Counted from the stretch's first letter, positions 9,401 to 31,180 are shown. The stretch is 41,144 nt of DNA from Candidatus Micrarchaeota archaeon (GCA_016207165.1 JACQQD010000002.1:1-41144), one strand, 5' to 3'. The notes: a model not told the origin generated them from the sequence alone. A program made the numbers and translations.

Positions 9401-10201
9401 CACGTCGTCTATAACGTGCAAGTACGCGGCGTAGAGCTTGTCGTCGACTCCCCGCACCAAATCAAGCACCTTGAAACTGCTTGTGGGCGTCACCGCGAAA
9501 TCCAATTCCAATGAACCCGCGGTAGAACGGGCGAGTGGAACCGATGACAACTCAAGTGGTTTGGCAGTTGAAGTGGTTATGGAGCCGCCGGAAGCAAACG
9601 ACTTAGGGGTCAACGGCAATTGGCTGGTTTCTCGTACTTCTTTTTTCAAATCAAATGCCCATTGCAGTTCGTTTCTTCCATCGGGATTACCTAGCCTTCC
9701 GTCTAAGTATTTCAGGATATCGTCAGTCGTGAACGTGTGTTTGGAAATCCGTTTACCGGTCTTGGAGTCCACGCGTCCCTTTTTTTGGACTTCGACCTCG
9801 ATGGGCAGATACTGGTCATAGCCGCCGGGTCGAAGTGAGTCAAACCAGCTCTGCGGGCGGTTCAAACTGACCAATGCGCCAGTAGGCGTATTGCCGAGGT
9901 CATTCCCCCAAATGGTTACACTGGCTCCTTTGGGAACCGAAAAAATTCGAACCGGAGCAAAACTGTTACGCAAGCCGATTTCTTTGAGGAATTTTACATG
10001 CTCTGCCACGTACTGTCGGTAATCCACATACCCGGAAGGAAACTTGACAATCACGAGTTTGCCGCTGTCAAAAGTATCCGTGCGAAGGTCTTCCTTTTCA
10101 ATCACCGTTACATCCAATTTGGCAGCAGAGGTCATGGATACTAAGAGCAAAACCACGAACAAGAGCAACGCAAAACGGGGCAGGCCGTTAGTTAAGTTCA
10201 T
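6491..10201 (-). CDS. Large secreted protein (1236 aa) with a beta-propeller-like scaffold; paralogue of the 21753-25460 protein
   Basis: Start reassigned to ATG 10201 (MNLTNGLPRFALLLFVVLLLVSMTSAA, Sec signal peptide), overlapping the upstream stop. Colinear motif matches to the 21753-25460 product. Confidence 0.8.
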   Translation of the reverse strand: MNLTNGLPRFALLLFVVLLLVSMTSAAKLDVTVIEKEDLRTDTFDSGKLVIVKFPSGYVDYRQYVAEHVKFLKEIGLRNSFAPVRIFSVPKGASVTIWGNDLGNTPTGALVSLNRPQSWFDSLRPGGYDQYLPIEVEVQKKGRVDSKTGKRISKHTFTTDDILKYLDGRLGNPDGRNELQWAFDLKKEVRETSQLPLTPKSFASGGSITTSTAKPLELSSVPLARSTAGSLELDFAVTPTSSFKVLDLVRGVDDKLYAAYLHVIDDVETIDGEVNPRQYESFGIAVQEEDQKTWHSLGEVEEVVRHLVFPKTKPGTYKFIQGTDEDGNSIIQERCTTSATSYSGGNFYYALVPSQKGGVTAYYGRSRTAHTIGSDGVASRTRDDSGKPTGEIQCLNPKVTTDSYSYEFNDVKSVHASAQDGWGSPKTEARGDFGLDFLGTIGESAYFKRSSGDRSCITPMGFGTPICKTEEDAKNQVFSVPSPVENGKFEERPYPVENPFGQNLFLRLPQYTLSNTYEKVVRKDTVLTQLQGGQFVDKVRFGNGKFFGFDVKTFFDGDGDLHMAMQGPQGFYYQFEPKSTFQENAYPTYQKVYVFHPPGKACPTCEFLSQSNVPFEENPKTVTQKVADAVRDELSLILDDQGIALVYIDKAGKNHDKTFRGEYPDRVGLAKVLGLRLDPIKVRETSGAPIWDAPRIFAVYADDEGAPVVAIKEPEYAKKITQYAFDDEAAHRGLAWTESTELAYQGSNPTLRGWPAPADQGDLELITSMSYTPFTYQIPGANRPSYGSVTEYAVHTTRGESRPVGKPRFGIPGQVSKISANGKTVLPFPGKATAQLTSRPSMTHHVDACPSELEAGHLCVVNGLIKAHVAKNSQLTVSVSGTTGQIAQFALSPETRVDEGGSIYVRLTDVSDPTGGQPVGTLTELPAVNLILVGDKEGKLMLADESYREGVDGDLTLLSNALLADVDLARTIDGKTYEQLQSEIPGLSRTAFLIMKKKSTFNGALSIREWVFMAKELQSNRGFSFLDVSRIMLWKLVYEKVNEPTSFDALFNQKPGFSEDQMAAVYAYMPRILSDSRKDAVADLAPFYARIVAGDLSSRSPGEFGAGLVREQWIKLGYGFKKDETPFYADEALAAYVMVRKKAVVMSWPAWHIEMDSPRRYESLAGVYSGAHVYQRLNDYPGALYYSVLDEYLESMDFEAANTRAEIGGGRRISSLVGPSDQFAMHSIDSRTVGLT

Positions 10202-12635
10202 AGGTTTTTCCCTCGACGTTGATTTCAGACTCGTAATCGGCGGCCGGGCCCAACAAGACGATTTCCAGGCCGTTGTTGTACAATGCTTCAATGGTGGCGG
10301 GTTGCAAGAGTTCCGGTTCGTGTTCAATCACGAAAATCGTGGGGTAGTCGCCTACGGTTTCCGTGGAGACGTCGTGGTAGGAAACCACGTCGACGCGCGG
10401 GAAATTGCTTTGCATGTCGGTCACGAATTGCTGTTCGTGGGGCGAGAGGTTCTGCGTGTCGTACACGACGAGCACGGCAACGGGGAATCCTTCGCCGAAG
10501 GTTTCAATGGGTTGCGGCGAAGGCGACGGAGTGGGGGATGGGCTGGCTTCGGGCGTCGGCGTGGCGTCGGCATCCAGTGCGCCTGGGTTGCACCAGAACT
10601 TGACTCCGAACAATTCCGCCACGCATTGGAAGTCTTCTTGCTGGCGTTCTTCGGGTATTTCAAGTCCTTGGCAGAACAAGCCCACCCCGCCTACTTTCAA
10701 GAAGCAGTCGCGGTGGCGGTCAATGCCTTCCTCGTCGATGGGCAACTGTTCGCAGAGAAAGTCGGCGCCTCCCAAGGAAATGGCGCAGTCGCGCGGCTCA
10801 GGAGTGTCCACGCAGGTGCCCATGTAGAAGACTGCAAAGCCGGCGCGTTGCGCCTGACAGGCGTTGGAGTACGTCTGGCCGTTGACGGCGCACACGGGGT
10901 CAAACACGTCGGAGCAGGGCGTGGGTTGAACGGAAGGCCGAATGCTGGGTCCAGGGGTGGAAGTGGGGAAAGCGGATGGAAACGGGGTTGGAGTGACGCT
11001 GGGCGCGGCCCGTGGAACGCAGATGGGGGCCACCGGGCAACCTTGGGCGTCGGTTTGGCCGTTCGGATACGTCAGTTCAGCGTTGATGCAGTCCGGCATG
11101 GCGATGGGCGGGCAAACCGGTGTTGGAGAAGGACTGGGGGACGGACGGGGAGAAGGAGTAGGAACGGCCGAGGGAGCGGTTTCAGGTTGGGGCGTTGGAG
11201 TTGAACCTCCACCGCCGCTTCCAAAGTTCTGGGACGTAGTGGAAAAGGTGAGTTGGGCCGTGGAGTTGCAGGCGTTCAACGTCGTGCAACTGGTGACGCG
11301 GTAATAGTACGGCGTGGCGATGGAGAGGCTGGATAAACCGAGGACTTGGGCGGCTTGGAACGCGGCGCTGGAGGCGACGAGGCCAAAAGTGGACGTGGTG
11401 CCGTAGCGCACTGAAGCGTTGGAAGACAGCGAAGTCGTCCACTCAATGGCGGCGGAAGCGTGGGAAATGGAGGTGGCCGCCACGGAAGTAAGCACCGGGA
11501 AGTAGACGACGAAGGTGGTGGCGGAAGTCAACGGCAGGGAGGCGTTGGCGTAGAAAGCCAGATGATCGGAGGAATTCACCACCAAGTTGTACGGCGTGTA
11601 ATTGGTTTGGTTGGTGCCGTAGACTTGGGATCCGTTCTGGAAGTATTCGGTGAGGTTCTGGGTGGTAAAGCCGGTGGCGTTGGAAGCCAAGCTGAAGTTG
11701 GCGGTGGCGGAACCAAATGACGAGAGGTTGGCGGTGAATCCAGCCAACGCGCCGCCGGTGTTGGAGACGTTGACGTGGACCGTCCAGTTGACGGTGATGT
11801 TGCTGGACGCGTTCTGGAACAGGAGGCTGGTCTTGTTGAAAATCACGTCATGCAAAAACAGGGGCGAGTTGCCGAGGAGCTGGAAATCGCTGTAATTGAC
11901 GCTGGACGTGTTGCCAGTGATGTTCAAGCCGGAGAGCCGGTTGTTGTTGCCCAGCAAGTCAAACACCATGGAGCGGTTGGAACTGTTGTAAATGGTGTCC
12001 TGCCAGAACAAGTTGCCGGTTGAAGACTGGTTCATGGAGACGCCGACGTAGTTGCGGTTCAAGTAGTTTCGGCTGAACGTGAAGTTCGTCACGTTGTCCA
12101 AGTCAAAGCCGCCGCTGGAGAAGGTTTGCTGGAGGACGTTGTCTTGGATGGTGTTGTTGGAAAGCGTGGCGTTGATGGAGCCGTCAAAGGCCAGGCCGTC
12201 GGTGAAAGAGTACGAGACGTTGGAGTGCGAGATGTTGCCGTTAAAAGCGGAGCTGATTTCCACGCCGACGGTGTTGTTGTACGACGTGAGGTTGAACACC
12301 GTCCAGTTCGTCACGTTGGTCAACCCGATGCCTTGATTAAAACCCTGGACCCGGCCGTTTTTTACGGTGAAGTTGATGACGTGGGAGGCGTTCACTGCGA
12401 TGGTGTTGGCCGTCAGGTTTCCGGTGACGGTGAATCCGTTCAGGTCCAACAGCACGTTGTTGGAGGTCACGTTGAGGCAGGTATAGTTTTGGATGGTTAG
12501 TGAACCGGTGAGTACGTAGGTTCCGGCCGCTGAAATCGTGTTGCAGGCGGAGACGTCCACGGCGTGAACCGGAGGAGACAAAAGTAAACCAAAAACCAGG
12601 GCCAATAAAGCCAGTGCGGGCCTCGTTTGATGCAT
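10188..12635 (-). CDS. Secreted multidomain surface protein: parallel beta-helix (NosD/PbH1-like), FN3, Pro/Thr linker, Kazal-like module, three Cys hairpins
   Basis: Signal peptide ending PVHA; Asn-rich beta-helix repeats; FN3-type IEWTT...VRYG...YYYRVTS; Kazal-like CSDVFDPVCAVNGQTYSNAC...YMGTC at 10812-10916; many N-x-S/T sequons. Confidence 0.85.
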   Translation of the reverse strand: MHQTRPALALLALVFGLLLSPPVHAVDVSACNTISAAGTYVLTGSLTIQNYTCLNVTSNNVLLDLNGFTVTGNLTANTIAVNASHVINFTVKNGRVQGFNQGIGLTNVTNWTVFNLTSYNNTVGVEISSAFNGNISHSNVSYSFTDGLAFDGSINATLSNNTIQDNVLQQTFSSGGFDLDNVTNFTFSRNYLNRNYVGVSMNQSSTGNLFWQDTIYNSSNRSMVFDLLGNNNRLSGLNITGNTSSVNYSDFQLLGNSPLFLHDVIFNKTSLLFQNASSNITVNWTVHVNVSNTGGALAGFTANLSSFGSATANFSLASNATGFTTQNLTEYFQNGSQVYGTNQTNYTPYNLVVNSSDHLAFYANASLPLTSATTFVVYFPVLTSVAATSISHASAAIEWTTSLSSNASVRYGTTSTFGLVASSAAFQAAQVLGLSSLSIATPYYYRVTSCTTLNACNSTAQLTFSTTSQNFGSGGGGSTPTPQPETAPSAVPTPSPRPSPSPSPTPVCPPIAMPDCINAELTYPNGQTDAQGCPVAPICVPRAAPSVTPTPFPSAFPTSTPGPSIRPSVQPTPCSDVFDPVCAVNGQTYSNACQAQRAGFAVFYMGTCVDTPEPRDCAISLGGADFLCEQLPIDEEGIDRHRDCFLKVGGVGLFCQGLEIPEERQQEDFQCVAELFGVKFWCNPGALDADATPTPEASPSPTPSPSPQPIETFGEGFPVAVLVVYDTQNLSPHEQQFVTDMQSNFPRVDVVSYHDVSTETVGDYPTIFVIEHEPELLQPATIEALYNNGLEIVLLGPAADYESEINVEGKTYELN

Positions 12636-14604: not shown

Positions 14605-16095
14605 ATGGTTAGCAAGGAATCCAAAACCCAGGCCGTCATCAACTTGTGCCAGCGGCGCGGATTCGTTTTTCCGGCGGGCGACTTGTACGGCTCGTTTGCC
14701 GGATTCTTTGATTACGGGCCGCTGGGAGTGGAACTCAAGCGCAACGTACAAGCCAGTTGGTGGAACCGTTTCGTGTTGGGCCGAGAAGACATGCTGGGAT
14801 TGGATGGCGCCGTTCTGACGCATCCCCGCATCTGGAAGGCGTCGGGGCACGTGGACGCATTCAACGACCCGCTCGTTCAATGTAAAAAATGCAAGCACCG
14901 CTTCCGCGCCGACCACCTCATTGAAGAAGAACTCAAGGAAAGCGTGGACGGCATTTCCGAGGAAAAACTCAACGCGTTTCTTTCCGAGCACAAGCTGGTT
15001 TGCCCGGACTGCAAGGGAGCGCTTTCGGAAGCCAAGAACTTCAACTTAATGTTCAAAACGTCCGTCGGCGCCACGGAAGACAATTACGCGTACTTGCGTC
15101 CGGAAACCGCTCAAGTCATCTTCACCAACTTCAAGTACCTCCACCAGATCGGGCGCAAGCAATTACCGTTCGGCATCGCGCAAGCCGGCCGGTCTTTCCG
15201 CAATGAAATCTCGCCCCGCAACTTCGTTTTCAGAGGAAGGGAATTCGAGCAAATGGAAATCGAGTTTTTTGTGCATCCCGACAAACTGGATGACTGCCCC
15301 GACTTTGATGCGGTATCCAAACGAAAAGCCTTGTTCTGCACGGAAAAACACCAAAAAGACGGCGAAGACGGACAAAAAATGACGTTCGGAGATGCTATCA
15401 AGAAGAAAATCGTTCAAACGAAGTGGCATGCGTACTGGCTTGCGGAAGCCTTGGACTGGTTCGCGTCCCTCGGCCTCACAAAACTCCGCCTCCGCCAGCA
15501 CCGCTCCGACGAACTGTCGCATTACGCGAAAGAGACGTGGGACGTGGAATACGATTACCCGGAATGGGGCTGGAAGGAACTCATGGGAATTGCCAACCGA
15601 ACGGATTTTGACCTCAAACAGCATTCCAAGGAATCCGGCAAAGAGCTTGCCGTGTTTGACGAATCCACGAAACAGAAAGTCGTGCCGCACGTGATCGAGC
15701 CGTCGTTTGGCTTGGACCGCCTGTTGTTCACGTTGCTGTTGGACGCGTTCACGGAGAAAAAGGGGAAAGACGACTCCGGAAAAGAGGAAACAAAAGTTTT
15801 ACTCAAGCTCCACGAATCCATTGCCCCCGTGCCCTTAGCCGTTTTCCCGCTCATGAAGAAAGACGGGTTGGCGGAAAAAGCCTGGGAAATCTACGTGAAA
15901 CTCAAGAAACAAAACCCGGCCATTGTTTACGATGAATCCGGTTCCATCGGCAAACGCTACGCGCGCATGGATGAAGCCGGAACCCCGAAATGCGTGACCG
16001 TCGACCACCAGACATTGCAAGACGGCACCGTCACCATCCGGGACCGGGATTCCGGAGAACAAAAACGCGTCAAATCCGATTCAATAAAGACATAA
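14605..16095 (+). CDS. glyS: Glycine--tRNA ligase (archaeal/eukaryote-type alpha2)
   Basis: FFDYGPLG, WKASGHV, YLRPETAQ, FRNEISPR, REFEQMEIEFF, IEPSFGLDR, GSIGKRYARMDEAGTP. Confidence 0.98.
   Translation: MVSKESKTQAVINLCQRRGFVFPAGDLYGSFAGFFDYGPLGVELKRNVQASWWNRFVLGREDMLGLDGAVLTHPRIWKASGHVDAFNDPLVQCKKCKHRFRADHLIEEELKESVDGISEEKLNAFLSEHKLVCPDCKGALSEAKNFNLMFKTSVGATEDNYAYLRPETAQVIFTNFKYLHQIGRKQLPFGIAQAGRSFRNEISPRNFVFRGREFEQMEIEFFVHPDKLDDCPDFDAVSKRKALFCTEKHQKDGEDGQKMTFGDAIKKKIVQTKWHAYWLAEALDWFASLGLTKLRLRQHRSDELSHYAKETWDVEYDYPEWGWKELMGIANRTDFDLKQHSKESGKELAVFDESTKQKVVPHVIEPSFGLDRLLFTLLLDAFTEKKGKDDSGKEETKVLLKLHESIAPVPLAVFPLMKKDGLAEKAWEIYVKLKKQNPAIVYDESGSIGKRYARMDEAGTPKCVTVDHQTLQDGTVTIRDRDSGEQKRVKSDSIKT
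16018..16071 (+). repeat. glyS 3'-end segment, source of two downstream copies
   Basis: GACGGCACCGTCACC is shared with both copies; CCGGGATTCCGGAGAACAAAAACGCGTC at 16044-16071 is identical to 17606-17633. Confidence 0.9.
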
Positions 16096-16104
16096 TAAAA
16101 ACAC

Positions 16105-16133
16105 GAGCCCCCCCGCAGGACGGCACCGTCACC
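16105..16133 (+). repeat. Left direct repeat (decayed glyS 3'-end copy)
   Basis: GAGCCCCCCCGCAGGACGGCACCGTCACC matches 17576-17603 except for one extra C. Confidence 0.88.
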
Positions 16134-16293
16134 TTGAGAGAAACTGGACAACGGAAAAAAAAGGCGTACCTGACTTGAAGAAGCCTCGAACCCACAAATC
16201 GCATCGTAATGGATAAATTTATATACTTTTAACCACTATAATAATGATATCCTCCTTGGCCTAAAGCCGGCGGTATCTCGACCCAAAGGGAAA

Positions 16294-17553
16294 ATGAACA
16301 TGTTGCGTGACGTCATTCTGAAGCAAAAAAGCGAACTGGAAGCCAAAAGAAAAAACACGTACATTCCGCGGGACGCAAAAATCAAAGGACTCGACTCAGA
16401 CATCGTCAAAGTCATCACCGGACCCCGGCGAGCCGGAAAATCCTCCTTCGCGATAAACTCCATAAAAGAAAAATTCGGTTACGCTAATTTTGACGACGAA
16501 CACCTCACAGAAATACAAGACTACGACGAACTCGTTGCCACAATCGACAGTGTTTACGACAACCCGAAAACGATATTCTTTGACGAAATACAAAACCTCC
16601 CCAAGTGGGAATTGTTCGTCAACCGCCTCCAACGGCACGAAAAAAACATCATCCTGACGGGCAGCAACGCCAACCTTTTGAGTAACGAGCTTTCCACCCA
16701 CCTTACGGGAAGGTATTTTGAGACCAGAATCTACCCCTTCTCGTTCAAAGAAATAACGCCAAACGCCGAAAACCTGCCCGCCAGCGAAATCAAGAAGAAA
16801 TTCGACGAATTTCTGATGCAGGGAGGCTATCCGGAGCCGTACGTAAAAAAACTGGATGTCTCCGAATACCTCAAAACGCTTTTCGAAGCAACCGTATACA
16901 AGGACGTGATCAAACGATACCGGATACGAAAAACCAGCGAGTTGGAAGCCATCGCCGACTTCCTCCTGGCCAACATCGCAAGCCAGACCTCGTTCAACCA
17001 AATCGCGAAAAGCCTCGGGTTGAAAAGCGCCGAAACCGTGAAAAAATACTGCAGGATTTTGGAGGAAACCATGGTTTTCTTCACCGTGAAAAGATTCTCC
17101 TACAAGCTGAAAGAGCAGGAAGCGGAAACGAAAAAAACCTACTGCATCGACAACGGCTTTTTCAAAGCCAAGGCGTTCTCCACCAGCCAAAACTTCGGCA
17201 AACTATACGAAAACCTCGTGGCCTCGGAATTGAAAAAAAGAGAAACCGAACAAAACGCAAGAACGTATTACTGGAAAAACCAACAGCAGGAAGAAGTGGA
17301 CTTCGCGGTAAAAAAAGGGGACAAAATAACGCAACTCATCCAAGTGTGCTACTCGCTTGAAAACAAGAAAACACAAGAACGCGAAACGCGGGCCCTTCTG
17401 AAAGCCGGGAAAGAATTAGACTGCCCAAACCTGCTTTTGTTGACCGCAAACGTGGAAAAAACCGAGGAGAAAGAATGGTTCGGAACCAAGGGAACAATAA
17501 AATACCAGCCCGTCTGGAAATGGCTCCTGGAAAGCGAATCCAAAACACCATGA
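16294..17553 (+). CDS. AAA+ ATPase (AAA_14) with a C-terminal DUF4143-like domain
   Basis: Walker A GPRRAGKS, Walker B IFFDEIQ, LTGS, GGYPE, ENLVA, EEVDF...IQVC. Visibly A-rich compared with its neighbours; TTTATATA at 16218-16225. Confidence 0.93.
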   Translation: MNMLRDVILKQKSELEAKRKNTYIPRDAKIKGLDSDIVKVITGPRRAGKSSFAINSIKEKFGYANFDDEHLTEIQDYDELVATIDSVYDNPKTIFFDEIQNLPKWELFVNRLQRHEKNIILTGSNANLLSNELSTHLTGRYFETRIYPFSFKEITPNAENLPASEIKKKFDEFLMQGGYPEPYVKKLDVSEYLKTLFEATVYKDVIKRYRIRKTSELEAIADFLLANIASQTSFNQIAKSLGLKSAETVKKYCRILEETMVFFTVKRFSYKLKEQEAETKKTYCIDNGFFKAKAFSTSQNFGKLYENLVASELKKRETEQNARTYYWKNQQQEEVDFAVKKGDKITQLIQVCYSLENKKTQERETRALLKAGKELDCPNLLLLTANVEKTEEKEWFGTKGTIKYQPVWKWLLESESKTP

Positions 17554-17565: not shown

Positions 17566-17660
17566 TGGACCGCCAGAGCCCCCCGCAGGACGGCACCGTC
17601 ACCCTCCGGGATTCCGGAGAACAAAAACGCGTCCAAGCCAAAAAGATGAACGTGGTTTGA
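17566..17660 (+). repeat. Right direct repeat: decayed alternative glyS C-terminal coding segment
   Basis: Translates as DRQSPPQDGTVTLRDSGEQKRVQAKKMNVV*, compared with GlyRS DHQTLQDGTVTIRDRDSGEQKRVKSDSIKT*. Confidence 0.88.
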
Positions 17661-17666: not shown

Positions 17667-17975
17667 ATGGAAGCCTGCATCCTCTGCAAACAAACCCACG
17701 CACCCGCCGAAGGCCACTGCCAACGCCTGATGGAATTAGAGAGGCGTCTCAATGAAATCGACGGATTGAACAAGGCCAAATTCCAGGCGCTGCCGCCGCG
17801 CCATCAACAAGACATGCATGAGGAAGTCGGACGCACCGCGCGCGAACTGGATGGAATGAGATCAGGCGAACTGCATCCCAGGGCGCGGGGGAAAGCGGAG
17901 GCCCTCCGGCGCCTGGCCGGCCTCTTGATTGCCTGGACCGCAGAATTTCGCACGCGCGAGCCCTCGCTACGCTGA
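17667..17975 (+). CDS. Hypothetical protein with an N-terminal C-x2-C-x3-H-x6-C motif
   Basis: MEACILCKQTHAPAEGHC followed by helical sequence; it fills the gap up to the convergent gene. Confidence 0.5.
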   Translation: MEACILCKQTHAPAEGHCQRLMELERRLNEIDGLNKAKFQALPPRHQQDMHEEVGRTARELDGMRSGELHPRARGKAEALRRLAGLLIAWTAEFRTREPSLR

Positions 17976-17985: not shown

Positions 17986-20900
17986 CTACGCGGCCACGCC
18001 CAAGAATTGGTCAACTAAGGGAAGCAAGCGCGGCGCCCAATTCAAGTCGCCGTTGACATTCTTAAGACCCCAATCGAACGGATCCGCCATCCACGCTTGG
18101 CCGATTATTTGAGCCTTGCCCTTCACCGTACCGTCTGACGCTTGACGACCGGTAAGGTCTGGACGAGTTGAAAGGTCTTCCAAGAATGTACTTCCACCAG
18201 TGAGGGGAGCCGAAGAAATCTGGTCCAACCGGTTGCGGGCGTTACCTAGAGTCCCACTGAAATCGGTGGCGAAAACTACTTTGAACTCTGCAAGGTAATC
18301 GTCCATCAGGGCAACTGGAACATCGTAATCCCTCACGAAAAGGAAAAAAGTAAGGGATTCATCCGGCGTTGATTTGGTAATCATTAAGGGATCCAAATCA
18401 ATTAAAACCGCCTTTGAATTTGATTTCCGAACAATATAGTTGTCTCCATCCAAATCCAAAATAACGTATCCTTGTCGAGCCAGTTCCGCATCGGCGGCAG
18501 CCACAGAGCGTACGGCCGTTTTCTTGGTTTGCTCGGATCCGGACGCCAAAACCTTTCCAAGGGTCGTCCCCTCAATGTATTCTTGAAAGAAAAGTCCTTG
18601 GCCGTCTTTGAAGTTGTTCCGCTGGCCCTCGACAAATCCATAAGGCTTGGCCGCAAATCCTTTTTTCGACCAAGCTTCAAACAATTCCACTTCCTTGGGG
18701 TGGGTAAAGCCGGTTTTGGCAACCATGACCTTGCTTGAACCGTCCTTGAACAATACGCGAATCAAGTGCACGTCGCGGGAGCCTCCACTGGCCAAGAAAC
18801 CGGGTTTTAACGCATCTCCGACTTCTTTGACTGCTTGAATGGATTTGACGTCATCCAACGCGAAGTAACCGTCCGTAAGGACGCGAATCGTGTCGTCCAA
18901 TTCCGTCGTGAGTTTTCCATTCAATTCCTTGAGGAAATCCAAGCGTTCCGGTGGGTGGTCGCCGTAACGAGCCAGCATGCGGTCAAAGCCTTCCGGGTTG
19001 AACAACGGCTTGCCGTACTTGTACGTTTCCCCGCGGGAGTACACCATGCCCATGACCAACGGAGAATCCCGCATGGAATCCGGGTCTTCGCGGATAAGTA
19101 GTCCGTTGAAGAACTCGGCGTCCCGGCCGAAGACATCCATGTCAGTTGGAATGTCGCTGTCCAAGACGGCGACAAAAGAAGCCGCCCGATGGGACGTTTC
19201 CAAATCGGATTTCTGTTTTTTGAGTGTTACCTCAAGAGAGTCAACCAACTCTTGGTCGCCGGACTTCTTTGCTTCAGCCAAGGCCTCTTCCGTGTTCCTT
19301 ACCAGTTTTTGCTGGAACGTCAACCTCTTGGGTATTGGGTCCAAGGCCGCCTGTACGCCGCCTTGTCTTGGCTTCAAGGTGGTTTCATCGACGACGGTGT
19401 CCAATACCCTCAGCAATTCCGTGGACTGTTCAATGGGCAAAATGGCTTCCAGGTGCTCCTTGAGTTGACGGAATACGACGCGGCTTTGACTGTACTCCCG
19501 CGTTCCTTGTGGGGCTTTTTGAGCGGCTTGGAAGGCCGATCGGAAAACGGATAACTTGTCCTTCAGCGGAACGCTGGGCCCGAAGTACCCGTCCAATGTT
19601 TCCAGGTAATAGCGTTTGGCTCCCACGCCCTTGGCCGGCGCCGCACGCAAGTCCAGTTCCAGTTCAGCGTCATCGGCGGCTTTGACGAAGCGTTCCACTT
19701 GCGCAACCAAGGCTTTGGGGGGTTTGCCTTTGGACACGTATAGGATGCGGTAACTTCCCGCGTCGCCAGGCAAAAGAAGGACGCGGGGGTCGTCAATGGC
19801 GGCGTCAAAGACTTGCTGGACGGCTTGCTGGTGTCGGACTTTGTAGTCGGCGTCGGCCTTGGCGGCCACGTTCGGATCCGGGGACTCCCTGAGGGGGCGC
19901 AGTTCATTCAAATCATTTTTGGCAGTCTCGGCGACGTCGGTGACGATTTTCGTGGTGATGTCGAGGTTGTCTTTTTTGAAGCGTTTTGCCAGGACTTTGC
20001 CCCAGTTGGATGGGTTCACGATTTTTCCGGCGGCATTCTTGAGGGGTTCCACGAATTGCTTGCGCCACGCGGTGGACGCGGAGGCGGGGTCTGAGGAGGC
20101 CTTGACGGGATCCGCGGCTTGTTGGGCGGGCGTGCGCTCGGCAACGGGTTCCTCGTTGAGTTTGACGGTGCCGCCTTCCGGCTCGACTTTGGCCGGCGCG
20201 GTGACTGGGCCGTCAGGTCCCTCGGCGCCCTTGGCTTTGGCGGCCTTGATTTTGACGTGCAGGGCGTCGTAGGCGTTGGCGCCCAAGTCCAGGACGAAGG
20301 TGGAGACTTGGCAGATGTTGAAGATGCGTTCGCCGACCGGCATTTCATGCCATTTCGTGGCGAGGTCTCGGGTTTGCGTGTACGTGTCGTAGAATCCTTT
20401 GGCCAGCATGGTGGACAGCAGGATGGCGCCGCCGACTTTCAAGACGGGCGGGCCTTTGGCGACGAGTTGGGAGCCGTACACGACGCCTCGGCTGATGGCG
20501 ACGCCCACGACTTCGCCCATGGCGCACGATTGAATCGCTTCAACACCTTGGCTGAGGTATTTGAAGTCCTTGTTGAGCTGGATTTTGGCGAAGTTGTCCG
20601 AATAGAACCGTTTTTCGAGGATGTCGGTGAGGATGAGTTTCTGGGCGGCCGTCATCTGGCCGACGCCCTTGTAGTTCTCCTGTTTCTTGTTCAGCATCGA
20701 CCAATTCAAGGCGTATTCGTGGTCGAGGAACTCGCTGGCTTCCAAGACACGTCGGACGGCGGTGCGGCGGTGGGGTTCGGAGTTCTGGGAAGTGCCGTAC
20801 ATGTAGAGGTCCATGTACGAGGGGTAAATCGAGTACCCGGTTTGCATGAAGACGTCGCCGCCTTCCATGGCCATTCCCATCCGGATGAAGTTTTCCCGAA

Positions 20901-21756
20901 CGTCCTTTATGGTGGCCCCGTTGCTTCCGGCGGAAAGGCACGGCGTGTTCAGCAGGAGGGAATCCGGGGGCAACTCGCGGCGCTTGGCGTAGGCGTACAA
21001 CAGCCCGAGGGGGGCGTCGGATTTGAGGCATTGGGCGAAGGTGCGAATGCCCAGGACGTCGTCACCGGTAAGGGTGGTGGCGGCCAAGTAGATGCGGAGT
21101 TCGGAATCGACGCTGTAGCGGTGCTTGAGGCGGCCGAATTCCAGGTGGGTGCTGATGCCGAAGCGCTTGTGGCGTTGGGCGGCAAAGTAAATGGTGTTGG
21201 CCACTTTTTCCTCCAAAAACGCGTCGGAAGGCGTTTGCTTGGTGCGATACGCCTGGATTACGGCGGACAAGACGGGGTTGAACTTGTACTCGTCTTCCAC
21301 TTGGGCAAGGCTGGCAACCGGCGTGCCTGAGACGAAGGCGATGTCGCCGGTCTTGAACTGGCGGAATCCCACGAAGCCTGGCAAGTCCGCGCATTTCAGT
21401 TCGTAGCCTTGCCCGTCTTGCCGGAGGGGCGGGCTGGCGATTTCGTCCCAAACCGCTTGAAGTTTTTCACTGGAGTTGTCGGTTTTGCTCAGGCAGTCCC
21501 GAATGCCGGCAATGGCGTCCAAGTTGTCTTTGATGCGTTGGCTGGCCACGTCTTCTTCGTAATCCATGGCCAGAACGCCCATGAACACGTTGAATTCTTC
21601 GACGTTGTCGCCGTAGAGTTCCTTGAGGAAGGCGTGTTCGATGGCCAACTGCTTCAAGGCTTTTTCGTTGAACGCCTTGTAATTGAAGTCCTCGGCCGCG
21701 GATGCCGTGGTGGCGATCAACAAAAGGAAAACCAGTGCGGGCAAGATTTTTTTCAT
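17986..21756 (-). CDS. Secreted 1256-aa protein with a C-terminal protein-kinase-like domain (polymorphic-effector-like layout)
   Basis: Signal peptide MKKILPALVFLLLIATTASAA; central Gly-rich hydrophobic helices; kinase motifs LASGGSRDV, VAK, FFQEYIEG, VILDLDGDNYIV and LIDLD. ATGA overlap with the upstream gene. Confidence 0.82.
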   Translation of the reverse strand: MKKILPALVFLLLIATTASAAEDFNYKAFNEKALKQLAIEHAFLKELYGDNVEEFNVFMGVLAMDYEEDVASQRIKDNLDAIAGIRDCLSKTDNSSEKLQAVWDEIASPPLRQDGQGYELKCADLPGFVGFRQFKTGDIAFVSGTPVASLAQVEDEYKFNPVLSAVIQAYRTKQTPSDAFLEEKVANTIYFAAQRHKRFGISTHLEFGRLKHRYSVDSELRIYLAATTLTGDDVLGIRTFAQCLKSDAPLGLLYAYAKRRELPPDSLLLNTPCLSAGSNGATIKDVRENFIRMGMAMEGGDVFMQTGYSIYPSYMDLYMYGTSQNSEPHRRTAVRRVLEASEFLDHEYALNWSMLNKKQENYKGVGQMTAAQKLILTDILEKRFYSDNFAKIQLNKDFKYLSQGVEAIQSCAMGEVVGVAISRGVVYGSQLVAKGPPVLKVGGAILLSTMLAKGFYDTYTQTRDLATKWHEMPVGERIFNICQVSTFVLDLGANAYDALHVKIKAAKAKGAEGPDGPVTAPAKVEPEGGTVKLNEEPVAERTPAQQAADPVKASSDPASASTAWRKQFVEPLKNAAGKIVNPSNWGKVLAKRFKKDNLDITTKIVTDVAETAKNDLNELRPLRESPDPNVAAKADADYKVRHQQAVQQVFDAAIDDPRVLLLPGDAGSYRILYVSKGKPPKALVAQVERFVKAADDAELELDLRAAPAKGVGAKRYYLETLDGYFGPSVPLKDKLSVFRSAFQAAQKAPQGTREYSQSRVVFRQLKEHLEAILPIEQSTELLRVLDTVVDETTLKPRQGGVQAALDPIPKRLTFQQKLVRNTEEALAEAKKSGDQELVDSLEVTLKKQKSDLETSHRAASFVAVLDSDIPTDMDVFGRDAEFFNGLLIREDPDSMRDSPLVMGMVYSRGETYKYGKPLFNPEGFDRMLARYGDHPPERLDFLKELNGKLTTELDDTIRVLTDGYFALDDVKSIQAVKEVGDALKPGFLASGGSRDVHLIRVLFKDGSSKVMVAKTGFTHPKEVELFEAWSKKGFAAKPYGFVEGQRNNFKDGQGLFFQEYIEGTTLGKVLASGSEQTKKTAVRSVAAADAELARQGYVILDLDGDNYIVRKSNSKAVLIDLDPLMITKSTPDESLTFFLFVRDYDVPVALMDDYLAEFKVVFATDFSGTLGNARNRLDQISSAPLTGGSTFLEDLSTRPDLTGRQASDGTVKGKAQIIGQAWMADPFDWGLKNVNGDLNWAPRLLPLVDQFLGVAA

Positions 21757-24700
21757 GCGGACGGCACTCCAATCATTTCAATAAACTTGTCCCTATCGCT
21801 TTTCACGCCGCCGGGGGTTGCATACGACCATTGAGGCAATAAGGAAGTTGGAAGCGATATGGTGCGGGAGTCAAAGGCCAGCCAATTCTGGGTTCGCGGG
21901 ACTTTCAACGCCATTTCGTAGACTTGGCCGGGTTCCAGGGCCACGTCGAAGCCCCCGAAGACCACGTTGCAGGCGCCGAGGCGGTTGTCATCCAAGTCGT
22001 CAAACACGGCGGTGCGCAACACCATTTTTTCGGTGTAACCGTTGGGATATAGTTCCGAGACCGTGGAACCGGGCTGCGCGTTGATGTGTTCCACGTGAGT
22101 GGATACCAATTCTTCAAAGGCGTTCAGGGCTTGCTGGGCTTGGAAGCAATACAATGCATTTCCCGCGGCGTCCTTGAAGGTGACGGGTTCCTCGATTTTT
22201 TCCAGTTGCTCGGCCAAGACGTCTTTTTTGGACCAATACGTATCGCCTTGCGGCAAGTCTTGAACCTTCAGGGTAAGGGTTTGCCGCGTGTCTTTGCCGT
22301 CGATGGCCACTTTGCACGACGCGTTTTGCGCGGAGGCGTCGACGAGCTTGATGGAGTTGGCGGGCATGGACTCCGAAAACAGGGAGCCGCAGGAAAGAGT
22401 GACTGTCCGCGGATAGTTGTTGACCAGCGTGATTTGTTTCTTGGCGGCGTTCTTGTCGGAGCGGTAAAACGCGAGGTTTTCGGGGGCAACGTACGCCAAG
22501 TCTTCCCGCACGACGTGGCGGACGGGCACGGAAAGCGGCGTGTCGCTGCTTAACTCGCCGGATTCCACGGTGAAGGTTCCCCGGACTTGTTTAACGTCAA
22601 GCAACCCGCCGGAATAGCGGTTTTTGGCTTCGACTTTTACGTCGGCGTACCACTTGTTTTGCGCGTCTTTTTTCACTTGGGCGCTGACAATTCCGGGAGC
22701 GGCCTCCACTGAAACCGTGGGCGCGGTTTCGGTTTGGATGGGCAGTTCCAGGCGGTAGTGCTGGAAGGGGACCAGTTCCGACAAGGCGTTGGCGAGGGTG
22801 GGTTCGTCAGGCACCAAGGATTTTTTGACGGTGTACAAGTCGTAGTTGGTGATGGCTTGGGACAAAATGGTGTAGGAGCTGGACCCGCAGGCGTTGGTTT
22901 TCCAGTAGCTTTCCGCTTTGTTGGTGGAGGCGGGAATCAGGAGGCTGATTTTGTCCTCGCTTTGACCCAGTGTGGGCCCGATGAAGGCCGTGTTGGACTC
23001 CAATTGTTTTTCGACGGTGAACAGCACGCTGGTATTCCACGTTTCGTCGTTTCGCACGTACTGGACGACTTCCTGCGTCTCGTTTTCAACGAGAATGGCG
23101 GGTGCGTTGTCCGGCTTGAGGTACAGCGACGGGTACAAGTGGGAGGTGTAGGCCGGAGTCCCGCTGCGTTTGGGGCGGTTGTACGAGTCCACTAGCTTGG
23201 GGTCGGCGGCGTACGGCGCGGAATCGGTTCCGGAAAGAACGGTTGCCGGAACCACGCCGTGGTACAAGTTGACTTGCGGCGAACTGATGGTTCCCACGTA
23301 ATATGTGTAGGCAAGGTTGCCTTTGCCGTCAAAAGCCGTGCGCGCGTCGGAACTGGGCAGGGAAAGAATCTTGGAGAACACGCCGTTTCGAAGAGCGTAC
23401 AAGGCCGTGTTTCCGGTTTTCCGGGCAAACAGGCTTCCGTCAGGCCCGACCAACATGCTTAGTATCGTGTCGTACGTGGACCCCGAAGTGGGGGGGACGC
23501 CGAAGTAGCCCACCCGCGAAAGTTTTCCGCCCAAATCCGATGACGTCACGTCCTTGGGCACGCCGTCGGAGGCGTACAAGTCCGGGCCGGCGCTGTCGCA
23601 CGTGCTGGCCGAGGAGACGTAAGTGCCTTTTGAAAGGCAGAAGTAGTACTTGCCGTTGCCGGAGCCGACGAACCGCAGGTTTTGCATGGATGACGAGGAT
23701 TCCTTGAGCTTGGAGGCGACGACGAAGTCGTCAATGCCGTCCGGCGTGACGTTCATGGCGCGCAACTCGAAGGTTATCCAGGTTTTTTCCGTGGTGGCCA
23801 GCCCTTCCAGTGGACAGTCGGAAGTGGTGGAGGAACGCGTGTAGTACGACACGCCGTTGATGGTCGTCGTGGTGCAGTAGCTGATGAAGTTGCTGTCGTA
23901 TTGTGAGTAGGACTTGCTTCGGAGTTTGCGACTTTCATAAAAGATGTAGATGCCGGAATCCGGTGCCAGCGCGGCACCCATGAACGACGTGCCGCCGCCC
24001 GCACCCTGGGCGCTGTAGACCTTGGGAGACCCCGACGAGGTCGTGGTGATGACGCCGATTTGCGTGTCCTCGGGTTGGGGCAACCTTTGAGCGCCTAAAT
24101 AGGTCCACGTGCGTCCCTTGTTTTTGGATACGGCCACCGCCGTGACGTCGTAATTGTAATAGCCCGGCCTGGACATGATTTGAACATTGGTGTACTTGGC
24201 GTCCCGGCTGAAGCAAGATTTGTAGTCCTGCGCGTCGGTGCTCCACTTCTTGCTCCCGTCGGATTCCGTGGTGTAAGGAATGGAGCCCGCAGGGCAAATG
24301 ACTGAATTCCCGGAGCCGTACTCATCGCAAAAGGGACACACCCAAACGCCAAACGAGTCTTGTCCAGGAAAGGGGCAATTGCCACCGCTACGATATCCGC
24401 AGGTGGTGACGTGTCGGGAACAGCGGCCCTTGATGTACACGGGTGCGGATGCGGAGGTAAAGCATTCGCCGTCTCTGGTGTCGCACGAGTCTACTTCGTC
24501 ATCGTCGGACAGGTAACAGAACTGGACAGTGGGGCCTGGCAAGGGGGACGTGTCCACCGTGCATTTCGTGATGGCGTCGTAATTGCTTCCGGCTGAGTAA
24601 CCAGGGCGATCTGGGTAATCCACGTGGTAGGCTTCCAATTTCAAAGGCGTATCCTCGTATCCGAGGAATTGCTTGCCTACGGTCTGCGAAGTGCCTTGCA

Positions 24701-25460
24701 ACCGGATGGAGTGCTTGAATACCAGGTACAAGTAGCCGTCTTTGCCGCGAAGCAGGGCCAACACTTGCGTGAGTCCAACGGCCCGGTTTCCGTTGGGGAT
24801 GTTGGAGGCCAACTCCTCCAATGGAAGGGGGTAGTGCGAGGCGGAAAAGCTTTCCGCGTCGGAAGCGGCGGCCGACAAGCCGCCCAACCAAGCCACCATG
24901 AAAACAAGGATCAACGCGAGTGCACGTCGTAACGCCAGCCGTGCAATGCATGAACCCAAGTCCAGCGGTGGGCAAGTGCGTTGGTGGAGGTTGTCTTGCA
25001 GTGGACGGTTGCGCGAATTCGTTTCAGTTGAACCGGATTCAGAAGCGCGTTCGCGGGGCGGTTCTTTGGGCTTGCGGTTTTTCAAGTACAAGTACGCGGC
25101 GCCGCCCACGACGACCAACGCCATCATGAACAGCGCCAAGAGCCCAAAGTCAACGGAGGGCGCTTCGAGATTTGCGTTGGCTTGGCTGGAGGACGCGTCG
25201 GGCGGGAAGTCTTTTTCGAATTGGGCGTTCAAGTCCACGTACCCCTCCGGCAACTCCGGCGGGACCACGGAGGGTTGCACTTCTTCTTCCAGGGGCGGAA
25301 GGACGAATTCGTCGAAAAGCAACGAGTCGGGGCTTGAGGCGGCCATCCAAGGAATCAGAAAGGATGACAAAAGCAAGGCGGTGGAGAGGGCCTTCGTCAA
25401 ATTCATGGGCGTTAAAGCGTACGGCGGCGTTTTCTTTTTGGTTTCGGTAAGGGTCGTCAT
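21753..25460 (-). CDS. Large exported beta-propeller-like protein with a Cys-rich insert
   Basis: 1235-aa ORF (alternative start ATG 25406, MNLTKALS). Asp-box-like VAVSKNKGRTW; repeated beta-strand/turn motifs; three N-terminal hydrophobic segments. Confidence 0.8.
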   Translation of the reverse strand: MTTLTETKKKTPPYALTPMNLTKALSTALLLSSFLIPWMAASSPDSLLFDEFVLPPLEEEVQPSVVPPELPEGYVDLNAQFEKDFPPDASSSQANANLEAPSVDFGLLALFMMALVVVGGAAYLYLKNRKPKEPPRERASESGSTETNSRNRPLQDNLHQRTCPPLDLGSCIARLALRRALALILVFMVAWLGGLSAAASDAESFSASHYPLPLEELASNIPNGNRAVGLTQVLALLRGKDGYLYLVFKHSIRLQGTSQTVGKQFLGYEDTPLKLEAYHVDYPDRPGYSAGSNYDAITKCTVDTSPLPGPTVQFCYLSDDDEVDSCDTRDGECFTSASAPVYIKGRCSRHVTTCGYRSGGNCPFPGQDSFGVWVCPFCDEYGSGNSVICPAGSIPYTTESDGSKKWSTDAQDYKSCFSRDAKYTNVQIMSRPGYYNYDVTAVAVSKNKGRTWTYLGAQRLPQPEDTQIGVITTTSSGSPKVYSAQGAGGGTSFMGAALAPDSGIYIFYESRKLRSKSYSQYDSNFISYCTTTTINGVSYYTRSSTTSDCPLEGLATTEKTWITFELRAMNVTPDGIDDFVVASKLKESSSSMQNLRFVGSGNGKYYFCLSKGTYVSSASTCDSAGPDLYASDGVPKDVTSSDLGGKLSRVGYFGVPPTSGSTYDTILSMLVGPDGSLFARKTGNTALYALRNGVFSKILSLPSSDARTAFDGKGNLAYTYYVGTISSPQVNLYHGVVPATVLSGTDSAPYAADPKLVDSYNRPKRSGTPAYTSHLYPSLYLKPDNAPAILVENETQEVVQYVRNDETWNTSVLFTVEKQLESNTAFIGPTLGQSEDKISLLIPASTNKAESYWKTNACGSSSYTILSQAITNYDLYTVKKSLVPDEPTLANALSELVPFQHYRLELPIQTETAPTVSVEAAPGIVSAQVKKDAQNKWYADVKVEAKNRYSGGLLDVKQVRGTFTVESGELSSDTPLSVPVRHVVREDLAYVAPENLAFYRSDKNAAKKQITLVNNYPRTVTLSCGSLFSESMPANSIKLVDASAQNASCKVAIDGKDTRQTLTLKVQDLPQGDTYWSKKDVLAEQLEKIEEPVTFKDAAGNALYCFQAQQALNAFEELVSTHVEHINAQPGSTVSELYPNGYTEKMVLRTAVFDDLDDNRLGACNVVFGGFDVALEPGQVYEMALKVPRTQNWLAFDSRTISLPTSLLPQWSYATPGGVKSDRDKFIEMIGVPSA

Positions 25461-25463
25461 GCG

Positions 25464-27023
25464 TCAATCACTTGAATCGGTTTCAGGGGTTTGGCAGATG
25501 AAAGGCGACGAAGCCAAAAGCGGGTTTTCCTTCAAGCAGGAAAGGCCCGCGCAGCAGGTGCCGCCGGAAAACACGCCGCACTGCCTGCCTTCAACGCGGC
25601 ACGCCGTATCCTCGACAGGCTCTTCGCCGACGTTGACCAACTCAATGGGCGGTTCGGGAGTCGGTAAAACCAGTTCGCCGTCGAAATAGGAAATGGCGGA
25701 ATCCGCGTCAACCAGCGTGACGCCGGCAAGCAGGTCGGAGAGTTCTTCTGGACTTGGGCTGGGCGACGGGGAGGGACTGGGTGAAGGGCTGGTGGGCGCG
25801 CACACCGTGGAAAACCCGTCCAATTGACAGGACAATGCTTGGCAGCACGAAATGCTTCCAGGGAGAATGCCGCATCCTTGGGCTTGCGGCACGCAGGAGA
25901 GTTCTCCGGAAGGGGAAGAATCCGTTTGCGATGAAGGAGGAGCTTGACAGCCCAAGCGGATGCCAAACGCGTCCAGCGCGCACCCGGCGCCTTTGGGCCG
26001 CACCCAGACACCAAAATCCTCGCGCACGGGCGTTTGCGACGAGCCGACGGCCGCCATGGCGGCATCTGCAGAGGAAGCGTCAATTCCGGCGCCCGTTTTC
26101 AGCCGGACTACTACGTCAAAAGCGGAACCAGACTTGAATTTCGTCGCATCCCAAAAAAGCCGTGACGCGCCGGGAACGCCTTCAAGCGCTTGAATGGTGG
26201 CAGGCCGGGGGAACACGGAACCGAATCCTTCAACTCCGGCTGGCAACAGGACGGCGAGGCCGCCGGAGTAATCCGTTGGCGCGGCAAATGAAAGCAGGGC
26301 GAACCGGCTGCCGTCGGGGCGCTGCAGGACAAAGAACGTGGTGCGGGAGTCCAAGGACCGTTCTAAAACAAGGGTGGATGAGGATCGCAAGTCCGCCGGA
26401 GACGGAATTTCTTCTTTGGAGGCCAAAGCGATTTGCTCGGCGTCCGCTCCCGCATCTTTTCCTGGAAGCACTTTCAAGTTGCCGGTGGGCAAGTCGGAAA
26501 ACGAGTAGGCGAAGCGGTCGTCGGAGACTTTGGACACGGCCACGGGTTCAACGGAAGCCGAGGCGTCCCCAGTCACCGAGAAAAACGAGTACGTGCCGGG
26601 CGGCAGCAGGATGGAAATCGAGTAGGCCGGCGGTGACGCGCCGGAATCAAACGACCACACCGAAGCGGACGCATCCAAAAGCGAGAACGAGAGGCCCGGC
26701 GCTCCCAAAAGCGTGCCCGAACCCCCGACTGGCACAAAAAACGCGTCCGGGTTAAAGTCCGCGCAGTCGCAACGCGTCTCTTGCGGAACGCTTAACGCCG
26801 TGAACAAATTGCCGGGCCGAAACGATCCGGAAGCGTCAGAACACTGCGAGTCCACGACCGCCGCCGCCCGGCATTGTTTTAATTCCAAGTCAGACAAGCC
26901 GGTGGCGGACTGCTGGAAGTTAGACTGGAGAACCAAAACGGCGACCACGACCACCAGCAACGCCCCGCCTAAGAGAAGAACGTATTCAAACGTTCCTTGT
27001 CCCCGTCGCGTGGATGTGGCCAC
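25464..27023 (-). CDS. Class III signal peptide (archaeal pilin-type) protein with a Cys hairpin and two knottin-like modules
   Basis: RRG|QGTFEYVLLLGGALLVVVVAVLVL is a prepilin-peptidase (EppA-type) site with Q at +1 and E at +5. GTG 27023 is the likely start. C-x6-C-x7/8-CC-x4-C-xn-C occurs at 25800-25895 and 25494-25601. Confidence 0.85.
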   Translation of the reverse strand: MATSTRRGQGTFEYVLLLGGALLVVVVAVLVLQSNFQQSATGLSDLELKQCRAAAVVDSQCSDASGSFRPGNLFTALSVPQETRCDCADFNPDAFFVPVGGSGTLLGAPGLSFSLLDASASVWSFDSGASPPAYSISILLPPGTYSFFSVTGDASASVEPVAVSKVSDDRFAYSFSDLPTGNLKVLPGKDAGADAEQIALASKEEIPSPADLRSSSTLVLERSLDSRTTFFVLQRPDGSRFALLSFAAPTDYSGGLAVLLPAGVEGFGSVFPRPATIQALEGVPGASRLFWDATKFKSGSAFDVVVRLKTGAGIDASSADAAMAAVGSSQTPVREDFGVWVRPKGAGCALDAFGIRLGCQAPPSSQTDSSPSGELSCVPQAQGCGILPGSISCCQALSCQLDGFSTVCAPTSPSPSPSPSPSPSPEELSDLLAGVTLVDADSAISYFDGELVLPTPEPPIELVNVGEEPVEDTACRVEGRQCGVFSGGTCCAGLSCLKENPLLASSPFICQTPETDSSD

Positions 27024-27069
27024 ACAAAGCCAATGAATCCGGCAATAAAATGGTTTGGGATGTCTGCGA

Positions 27070-27164
27070 TATAGCAAACCGCGAAAGTTCCGGGAAACTT
27101 TCGCGCCGTTTGCTAGAAAGCAATCCCGGACTATTTCGTCGGGTTACTTTCCGGGATTGCCATA
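27070..27164. repeat. 95-bp twin-hairpin element, copy 1 (MITE-like or structured RNA)
   Basis: 81/95 identical to 33849-33943 by ungapped manual alignment; two long stems. Confidence 0.9.
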
Positions 27165-31082: not shown

Positions 31083-31180
31083 GCAAGAATCACCTGGAAG
31101 GATAACGAATCCGGGTTAATAAGAACGAACGGATTTGTTCAGGCAAAAACCTGAAACCCGGAAAACAAAAAATCGGAGTG

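Follow-up and report, generated by a model that had tools for sequence, protein, structure and literature searches.

Does a predicted secreted protein of a small-genome archaeon carry its kinase domain as an exchangeable toxin, as the working part of a receptor, or in some other role? The question is raised by P0001, a protein of 1256 amino acids (aa) whose open reading frame (ORF), with its stop codon, occupies positions 17986..21756 on the minus strand of a 41,144-nucleotide stretch of DNA from Candidatus Micrarchaeota archaeon (GCA_016207165.1 JACQQD010000002.1:1-41144). This whole stretch is the window referred to below. An initial annotation of the window had described P0001 as a secreted protein of polymorphic-toxin layout with a recently swapped, low-GC kinase at its C-terminus, and it had listed a signal peptide, a helical N-terminal region, Gly-rich segments, a linker and kinase motifs. 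When these parts were recomputed, all of them were found at the places given. The interpretation changed: the kinase-like domain is present in every homologue that covers the region, and the variable part of the family lies behind it. We see about an even chance that P0001 is an exported effector-type kinase of a DPANN archaeon that acts on a host or neighbour cell.

The window belongs to a genome of 1.27 Mb in 12 contigs that is 90% complete (G000), which was compared with two further genomes of the same genus (G001, 89% complete, and G002). G000 is the genome of a small-genome, DPANN-type groundwater archaeon and not of a haloarchaeon; the nearest relatives of its glycyl-tRNA synthetase, at 51-55% identity, are in metagenome-assembled genomes labelled Nanoarchaeota, Aenigmatarchaeota, Nanohalarchaeota and Woesearchaeota. 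Four groundwater-metagenome runs have contigs that cover the P0001 gene, and those listed agree with it at every position, at the stop codon and across the shift in GC as well. The four runs come from one study and two of them are possibly the source of the window DNA, so that only two are independent. Because the run contigs cover the gene and its stop codon without differences, the short C-terminus of P0001 is unlikely to be an assembly artefact.

The kinase-like domain and the variable tails of the family

The protein-kinase-like domain spans residues 965-1200 (18157..18864, minus strand, as for all parts of P0001 given below) and was delimited by an AlphaFold2 (AF2) model, by structure searches with Foldseek and VIA, and by conserved columns. 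Its motifs can be read from the sequence: a G-loop, LASGGSRDV (residues 988-996, 18769-18795); a VAK that ends at K1014 (18715-18717); a D-L-D-G-D-N loop with D1101 at 18454-18456 and N1106 at 18439-18441; and LIDLD, with D1120 at 18397-18399. The other kinase elements are E1022, a hinge at Q1058-E1059, a helical C-lobe and a short activation loop or none.

The AF2 model of residues 851-1256, built from a 13-row alignment, reached a predicted local distance difference test score (pLDDT) of 87.8 and a predicted TM-score (pTM) of 0.88. It predicts a two-lobed fold, in which a five-stranded N-lobe with helix C is joined to a helical C-lobe, and the conserved residues sit on the canonical elements of the model, namely the strand 1-2 loop, the strand-3 Lys, the helix-C Glu, and the Asp/Asn and Asp after strands. 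All listed Foldseek matches in the PDB were protein kinases (E 5.8e-7 to 4.8e-6, probability 1.00), with TM-scores of 0.25-0.44 that are low because the C-lobe differs. In VIA, which was run independently of Foldseek against 48,161 representative chains, the top match was Bud32 (4ww5_A, Z 13.9, root-mean-square deviation 3.1 over 200 residues), followed by Kae1-Bud32 (3en9_A, Z 11.7), 8k20_B (Z 11.1) and RIO1 (Z 10.1-10.6). Small-molecule kinases (corramycin, methylthioribose, aminoglycoside and homoserine) scored Z 10.5-11.6 with the longest alignments, 211-232 residues, and a lanthipeptide kinase complex (9dk1_A) scored Z 10.6. The kinase-like fold that the initial annotation had proposed is borne out by the model and by both searches.

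By sequence the domain is hardly visible. Pfam gave no family for the whole of P0001 at E<=0.01 and none for its C-terminal pieces at E<=10, and NCBIfam and PADLOC gave no match for P0001. A single-sequence search of the PDB returned only three weak matches (E 0.7-0.8) over the catalytic loop, among them LIMK1 and a plant Bud32 (8k20_B, E 0.84). The kinase region of one relative, P0005, weakly matched LanKC and LanL of the class III and IV lanthionine synthetases (E 1e-5 and 1.6e-5, far below the full-length cut-offs), and in PADLOC it marginally matched MkoA (E 0.001) and PD-T4-6 (E 0.007). Judged from the predicted model, the domain is kinase-like and forms a sequence-orphan branch of the protein-kinase-like fold superfamily, with its catalytic set complete.

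The P0001 family comprises 14 sequences in all. When the last 404 residues were compared exhaustively by phmmer with 1.84 billion representative proteins, 10 came back, one of them the query. In 5.8 billion clusters, word-seeded searches located one full-length homologue, P0002, which is 34% identical and collinear throughout, and one N-terminal fragment, P0014, which is 49% identical and bears the NCBI label 'Candidatus Micrarchaeota archaeon'. Among 61 related genomes the family occurs in G000 and G002 alone, and this was also the result for 401 genomes across the phylum, in which the third match, in G158, was weak and unrelated. Within the genus, G000 has one copy and G002 five paralogues, and none was found in G001. 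Searches of contigs with a pattern derived from a 4-row alignment gave 81 matches in genome contigs and 93 in metagenome contigs, none of which was confirmed, and a pattern from the N-domain alignment gave 375 matches in metagenome contigs with no relative among them; these patterns are narrow, and the blanks are therefore weak evidence of rarity. The G158 match (E 1.3e-6) was rejected as a family member: it is L016 on contig C55, an ORF of ∼1000 aa that joins an ABC1-like kinase region to the head domain of a poly(A) polymerase.

In an alignment of 13 sequences, from proteins of 1200-1860 residues, the only invariant columns are G915, G991, K1014, G1016, Q1058 and D1101. R994, A996, G1063, N1106 and D1120 are at least 90% conserved, and E1022 is kept in 10 of the 13 rows. 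The same kinase-like domain is present in all 13 sequences that cover the region. Because every one of them carries it, and because its catalytic residues are the most conserved of the family, the kinase is a fixed core and not an exchangeable module. The kinase is thus not the recently swapped part that the initial annotation had taken it for; what varies stands behind it.

The border of the variable part is marked by a junction motif of the family, D-x-N-W ... R ... P ... V-D-x-F-L, which the alignment places at residues 1237-1252 of P0001 (18001..18048). P0001 ends 4 residues past this junction and is a tail-less, kinase-only form. It is one of four among the 12 junction-reaching sequences that stop within 4-7 residues, the others being P0011, P0003 and P0004; P0007 and P0009 carry a tail of 32-35 residues that ends in a Cys-x9-Cys loop, and in the remaining six the chain continues for 251-528 residues, with four kinds of tail that are unrelated to each other. 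These are an HD-domain tail in P0008 and P0012 (PF01966, E 1e-5 and 5e-5), a GlnD-type nucleotidyltransferase tail in P0005 (PF08335, E 1.9e-9; also TIGR01693), a tail with an H-E-x-x-H motif in P0006, and a module shared by the tails of P0002 and P0013 (29% identity over 171 residues, E 1.6e-16). In the ESM Atlas, look-alikes of the P0002 tail were DarT/PARP and Arr ADP-ribosyltransferases (0.84-0.85) and those of the P0006 tail were ATLF-like and M90 metallopeptidases (0.84-0.85), values below 0.9 that we treat as leads only.

Both HD-tailed genes, which belong to G002, are followed by a co-oriented ORF of ∼250 aa, at L010:1728-2519 (minus strand) and L012:8810-9709 (plus strand). The two ORFs are 53% identical (E 5e-96). 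No further copy was found in G000, G001 or G002, and they have no match in Pfam, NCBIfam or PADLOC and no evident signal peptide. This pattern is as expected of a tail-specific immunity or partner gene, and we regard the product as a candidate for such a protein. Orphan tail cassettes or remnants were not found when nine tails were compared by tblastn with the whole of G000 (90% complete), nothing falling below E 0.5.

The comparison of C-terminal domains that the initial annotation had proposed thus yielded four unrelated kinds of long tail behind a kinase that is itself constant. The polymorphic-toxin layout, with a conserved body and apparently exchangeable C-terminal enzymes, exists at the level of the family, one step further along the protein than the kinase, and the toxicity of the tails is putative; the copy in the window, which has no variable tail, does not show it.

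Export signal, hairpin and the upstream partner

P0001 begins with a Sec-type signal peptide (residues 1-20, 21697..21756), which has KK, a hydrophobic core and Ala-Ser-Ala before the predicted cut, a site judged from the sequence alone. The 19-residue Kyte-Doolittle mean (KD) of the core is 1.93. An N-terminal hydrophobic peak (KD 1.59-2.55) is present in all eight family members with a complete N-terminus and is also visible in the P0014 fragment.

The signal peptide is followed by an all-alpha N-domain (residues 21-405, 20542..21696) that holds four family-invariant Cys (88, 122, 243 and 273). In the AF2 model residues 21 to ∼400 have a pLDDT mostly of 80-95. Foldseek found no match to it in the PDB at E<=0.001, and the best match of a wide VIA search had Z 7.3, with a generic helical hairpin alone aligned; the model, at 500 residues, is long for such searches. 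The N-domain may be a new all-alpha domain without a detectable structural relative in the PDB, with a known fold still possible.

Behind the N-domain, residues 408-456 (20389..20535) form two Gly/Ala-rich, weakly hydrophobic helices (KD 1.11-1.29) with a short, Pro-containing positive turn between them. The turn is positive and free of acidic residues family-wide. In the AF2 model the two helices appear as an isolated pair (pLDDT <50) that is not packed on the N-domain. Invariant C411 lies directly before the helices and invariant C482 behind them, so that the pair flanks the hairpin. C482 is held by a third, amphipathic segment (residues 478-496, 20269..20325, KD 1.03), for which KD exceeds 1.0 in three of the 10 members scanned (P0001, P0009 and P0011). 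A Pro/Ala/Lys/Glu-rich linker, recognized by its composition, covers residues ∼500-560 (20077..20259); over residues 500-850 P0001 contains 13% A, 10% K and 7% P. The region between linker and kinase (residues 561-960, 18877..20076) is conserved and mostly helical according to the 13-row alignment and the AF2 model of 851-1256, in which its last ∼110 residues pack on the kinase domain.

The P0001 gene is preceded by a gene for a partner protein of 1235 aa with 22 Cys (21753..25460, minus strand), whose stop codon overlaps the P0001 start by 4 bp. The partner has three hydrophobic helices (KD 1.53, 2.26 and 2.27) and then a large domain. Over its C-terminal 370 aa it shares 39% identity (E 5e-74) with the product of the gene upstream of the paralogue at L012. 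Partner-gene copies follow the same pattern as the P0001 family (one in G000, five in G002, none found in G001), and the family gene always comes after a gene for a large, Cys-rich surface protein. P0001 belongs to an accessory two-gene surface cassette. A complex prediction for the conserved C-terminal 405 residues of the partner and the P0001 N-domain scored 0.01, a value that speaks neither for nor against binding. Upstream of the partner gene, at a distance of 3 bp, lies a gene for a protein of 537 aa with 20 Cys and a class III (archaeal pilin-type) signal peptide (25464..27077, minus strand; PF04021, E 3.6e-6; KD 3.03).

Effector, receptor or surface enzyme

Whether P0001 is an effector or a receptor would be settled by its membrane topology. 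The short positive turn between the two helices suggests a hairpin, both ends of which would face the same side of the membrane. The distribution of Cys bears on the same point. The Cys that P0001 shares with the whole family are six (88, 122, 243, 273, 411 and 482), and its last 774 residues contain none, for which the chance is 0.0002 at the genome's Cys frequency of 1.1%. In the regions behind the hairpin of the 13 sequences, ∼11,800 residues contain 23 Cys, of which 22 stand in pairs at most 26 residues apart, several of them at the extreme C-terminus; none of the 13 kinase domains has any. The Cys counts of P0001 and its upstream neighbours are even (6, 22 and 20). Even counts are typical of disulfide-bonded exported proteins, and Cys-free payloads are typical of toxins that need to unfold to cross a membrane. 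Together with the conserved signal peptide, the low hydrophobicity of the two helices and their unpacked state in the model, this pattern slightly favours a location outside the producer cytoplasm for the part of P0001 behind the hairpin. As an observation on the organism itself, the three even counts suggest that it forms extracellular disulfides.

If P0001 is an exported effector, it would after Sec export be held at, or released from, the cell surface, and the Gly-rich hairpin would either anchor it in the membrane or insert into a membrane under certain conditions. The C-terminal part, which is free of Cys, would reach the ATP-containing cytoplasm of an attached host or neighbour cell, and the kinase would act there, because ATP is available in that compartment, by phosphorylating a protein or a small molecule. 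Among the relatives that have a tail, the HD, nucleotidyltransferase or HExxH domain would add a further payload, and the small gene that follows the HD tails may protect the producer. A fuller version of this proposal makes the two-gene cassette a contact-dependent effector system of DPANN episymbionts, in which the partner binds the host, the latent hairpin serves to cross the host membrane, and a payload that lacks Cys and is able to unfold enters the host cytoplasm; the Bud32-like kinase would be its constant warhead or an ATP-sensing activator, with an optional HD, nucleotidyltransferase, HExxH-type or other module behind it. This version as a whole we consider unlikely.

Several observations weigh against an exported effector. 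A search of PDB sequences with the family profile found no kinase, the kinase call resting on the predicted model and the motifs, and the structural matches do not separate a protein kinase from a small-molecule kinase. The topology is inferred from the sequence and the model, and one spanning helix alone would put the kinase in the cytoplasm of the producer. In P0012 and P0013 the first hairpin helix is polar and the second alone is hydrophobic, which fits a single span, and the Cys pairs may instead bind metal. P0001 itself has no protecting gene downstream, and the other three G002 paralogues are followed by genes for PCNA, AbiEi and a signal-peptide peptidase and have no protecting gene. 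No secretion or translocation apparatus and no host is known. HD and GlnD-type domains, moreover, are common intracellular signalling outputs.

Part of this evidence is what a receptor-type transmembrane kinase would lead one to expect, with an N-domain that senses the outside, one helix that spans the membrane, and the kinase and the output domains of the relatives in the cytoplasm. The initial annotation had named such a receptor as its own alternative, to be recognized by the same kinase in all homologues behind a confident single transmembrane helix. All 13 homologues do keep the kinase behind a hydrophobic region; between N-domain and kinase, however, two adjacent weak helices (KD 1.1-1.3 in P0001) are found instead of a single confident membrane span. 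The enzymes need nucleotides, with which a location inside the cell would supply them, HD and GlnD-type domains are well-known outputs of signalling proteins, and both the single hydrophobic helix of P0012 and P0013 and the missing protecting gene behind P0001 suit a receptor. Yet the mid-protein helices have KD values of 1.0-1.6 across the family, compared with 2.26-3.03 for the clear membrane helices of two neighbouring proteins, and their arrangement around a short positive turn suggests a hairpin that returns the chain to the outside. A single span would leave invariant C411 and C482 on opposite sides of the membrane, and it would make a 774-residue part without Cys cytoplasmic, in a family whose few Cys in that part are closely paired. 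An HExxH tail and a tail-specific downstream gene would be unusual for receptors, and copy numbers of one, five and none found within a genus are more in keeping with accessory genes for conflict or contact than with a core signalling function. On balance a receptor appears rather unlikely. A surface ecto-enzyme related to APH and methylthioribose kinases, displayed or released, might instead phosphorylate a scavenged metabolite, a lipid head group or an antibiotic. The VIA matches to small-molecule kinases, whose longest alignments include the helical C-lobe, and the lack of an activation loop are in line with such an enzyme, but a supply of ATP outside cells is doubtful, the best match by both Z and root-mean-square deviation is Bud32, a protein kinase/ATPase, and the weak sequence matches are to peptide or protein kinases (LanKC/LanL, LIMK1 and Bud32). 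We hold this explanation to be highly improbable.

The remaining explanation, in its strict form, is that the kinase is an exchangeable polymorphic-toxin cassette that arrived recently from a low-GC donor. The hand-counted GC values of the initial annotation agree with recomputed ones (0.408 for 18301-18420, 0.70 for 20161-20220 and 0.667 for 21001-21060). In 60-codon windows, the GC content at third codon positions (GC3) is 0.77-0.87 over residues 1-540, 0.60-0.77 over residues 540-1050 and 0.40-0.43 over residues 1081-1170, and a low-GC3 tract (0.40-0.55) covers residues ∼1021-1200 (18157..18696). For the genome (8466 windows from 542 long ORFs) the median GC3 is 0.72, the 5th percentile 0.50 and the 1st percentile 0.37; the trough lies below the 5th percentile, and the within-gene range of 0.47 falls between the 95th (0.45) and 99th (0.52) percentiles. 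A low-GC kinase domain had been claimed, and the trough is real, but it takes in the kinase C-lobe only, the G-loop and VAK standing at GC3 ∼0.6. In the N-region tree P0001 and P0002 are sisters (support 100/99), and the approximately unbiased (AU) test rejects P0002 with P0005 (p 0.00013). The kinase-region tree pairs P0002 with P0005 (support 92/96, and 96/98 with two more rows), and P0001 with P0002 is marginally disfavoured (AU p 0.062; 0.035 with P0003 and P0004 included), p-values that are optimistic since the tested groups were chosen after the first tree. In sliding windows between residues ∼120 and ∼870, the identity of P0001 to P0002 exceeds its identity to other members by 0.1-0.3. 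By windows 1021-1120 and 1071-1170, which coincide with the GC3 trough, this excess has fallen to -0.03 and -0.06.

The base composition, the lost closeness to P0002 and the discordant trees would all be expected of a swapped cassette. However, a different domain at the kinase position occurs in none of the 13 sequences, and the low-GC tract leaves out the first part of the domain, beginning only past the G-loop and the catalytic Lys. The fall in GC3 is gradual over the 3′ half of the gene, and in G002 the paralogues L013 and L011 show a comparable fall from the N- to the C-terminal end. The recombinant could be any of P0001, P0002 and P0005, and residues 1131-1210 are the fastest-evolving stretch in every comparison. 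A swapped cassette in this strict sense is very unlikely. A weaker proposal is that homologous recombination with a family member of lower GC, as opposed to a domain swap, exchanged a patch within the kinase C-lobe; the chances for and against it seem roughly balanced.

Relation to known systems and surroundings of the locus

In predicted fold P0001 is closest to Bud32/RIO, and in layout to the bacterial polymorphic toxins. With Bud32/PRPK and RIO it shares the Gly-rich loop, the Lys, the D-x4-N loop, the metal-binding Asp and the absence of a long activation loop. It differs from them in having no Pfam RIO1, Pkinase or APH match even at E<=10, a helical N-terminal extension of ∼110 residues and a longer helical C-lobe; Bud32 and RIO are cytoplasmic KEOPS or ribosome-biogenesis factors, whereas the P0001 kinase is embedded in a 1256-aa protein with a signal peptide. 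The likeness to the polymorphic toxins CdiA, Rhs and MafB lies in a conserved body, a junction, unrelated enzyme tails, a downstream gene specific to the HD tail and a patchy, multi-copy distribution. The P0001 family does have a signal peptide, but in contrast to them none of the known trafficking, repeat or pre-toxin domains was detected in it with Pfam; most of its copies have no downstream protecting gene, and no orphan cassettes were found in G000. Eukaryote-like receptor kinases have the same order of parts as P0001, but P0001 has no confident single span and its kinase-bearing part is free of Cys.

Polymorphic toxins have reportedly been predicted in archaea as well, in a survey by Makarova et al. 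that appeared in mBio in 2019. Literature searches on DPANN, on archaeal polymorphic toxins and on secreted kinases brought up no paper with the P0001 family in its title or abstract; the 2019 mBio survey may cover related loci.

A secreted kinase toxin has a precedent in bacteria. According to passages of Zhang et al. (2012; PMC3482391), Tox-Peptide Kinase, which is related to the lantibiotic-synthetase kinases, occurs as a toxin domain in proteins related to polymorphic toxins; it is one of many C-terminal toxins that can take each other's place in systems of Firmicutes with PVC-type delivery. As far as these passages describe it, the resemblance is that of a kinase on the C-terminal side of a large secreted multidomain protein, and the weak LanKC/LanL matches of P0005 and the structural match to a lanthipeptide kinase complex point in the same direction. 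The P0001 family differs in being archaeal, in the invariance of its kinase and in the position of the variable module behind it, and no PVC-type machinery was seen.

Little is understood of the ways in which DPANN archaea, with their tiny genomes, bind to their hosts and live off them, and very few candidate effectors have been proposed; the locus is a concrete candidate that can be tested. P0001 also adds to the kinase-fold superfamily a new sequence family that is invisible to Pfam, NCBIfam and PADLOC. Were the contact-dependent effector proposal true, no polymorphic effector family would, to judge from our searches, have been described in archaeal symbionts before this one, and it would give a handle on how such symbionts control their hosts. 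Were P0001 a receptor kinase, it would represent an unusual eukaryote-like receptor layout in an archaeon, which is of more modest interest.

The window contains an island of very large predicted surface proteins, at 6491-12635 and 28821-40347. Its members include a Kazal and beta-helix protein (815 aa), a PEGA protein (1278 aa), a beta-propeller protein (753 aa) and an alpha-2-macroglobulin-like protein (1517 aa). Near one of the cassettes of G002, at L106:864-4046, Kazal/CarboxypepD_reg and class III signal-peptide proteins are encoded.

On the 3′ side of P0001, the initial annotation was right that in the window the stop codon has no gene of the same orientation behind it; the two genes that come next lie on the plus strand and run towards P0001. 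The nearer is a putative gene, a GC-rich (0.61) ORF of 102 aa at 17667-17975, which belongs to no Pfam family and has no match in G001 or G002; an AAA_14/DUF4143 ATPase gene with a GC content of 0.47 lies beyond it, at 16294-17553. The last ∼60 bp of the glycyl-tRNA synthetase gene and adjoining downstream bases recur after this ATPase gene (16017-16157 and 17579-17639). The repeats form two families of 49 nt that are 80-82% identical and 1470-1562 bp apart, and they are also seen in the run contigs. This looks like an insertion of ∼1.5 kb into the 3′ end of the synthetase gene, with the target duplicated, ∼350 bp from the P0001 stop codon.

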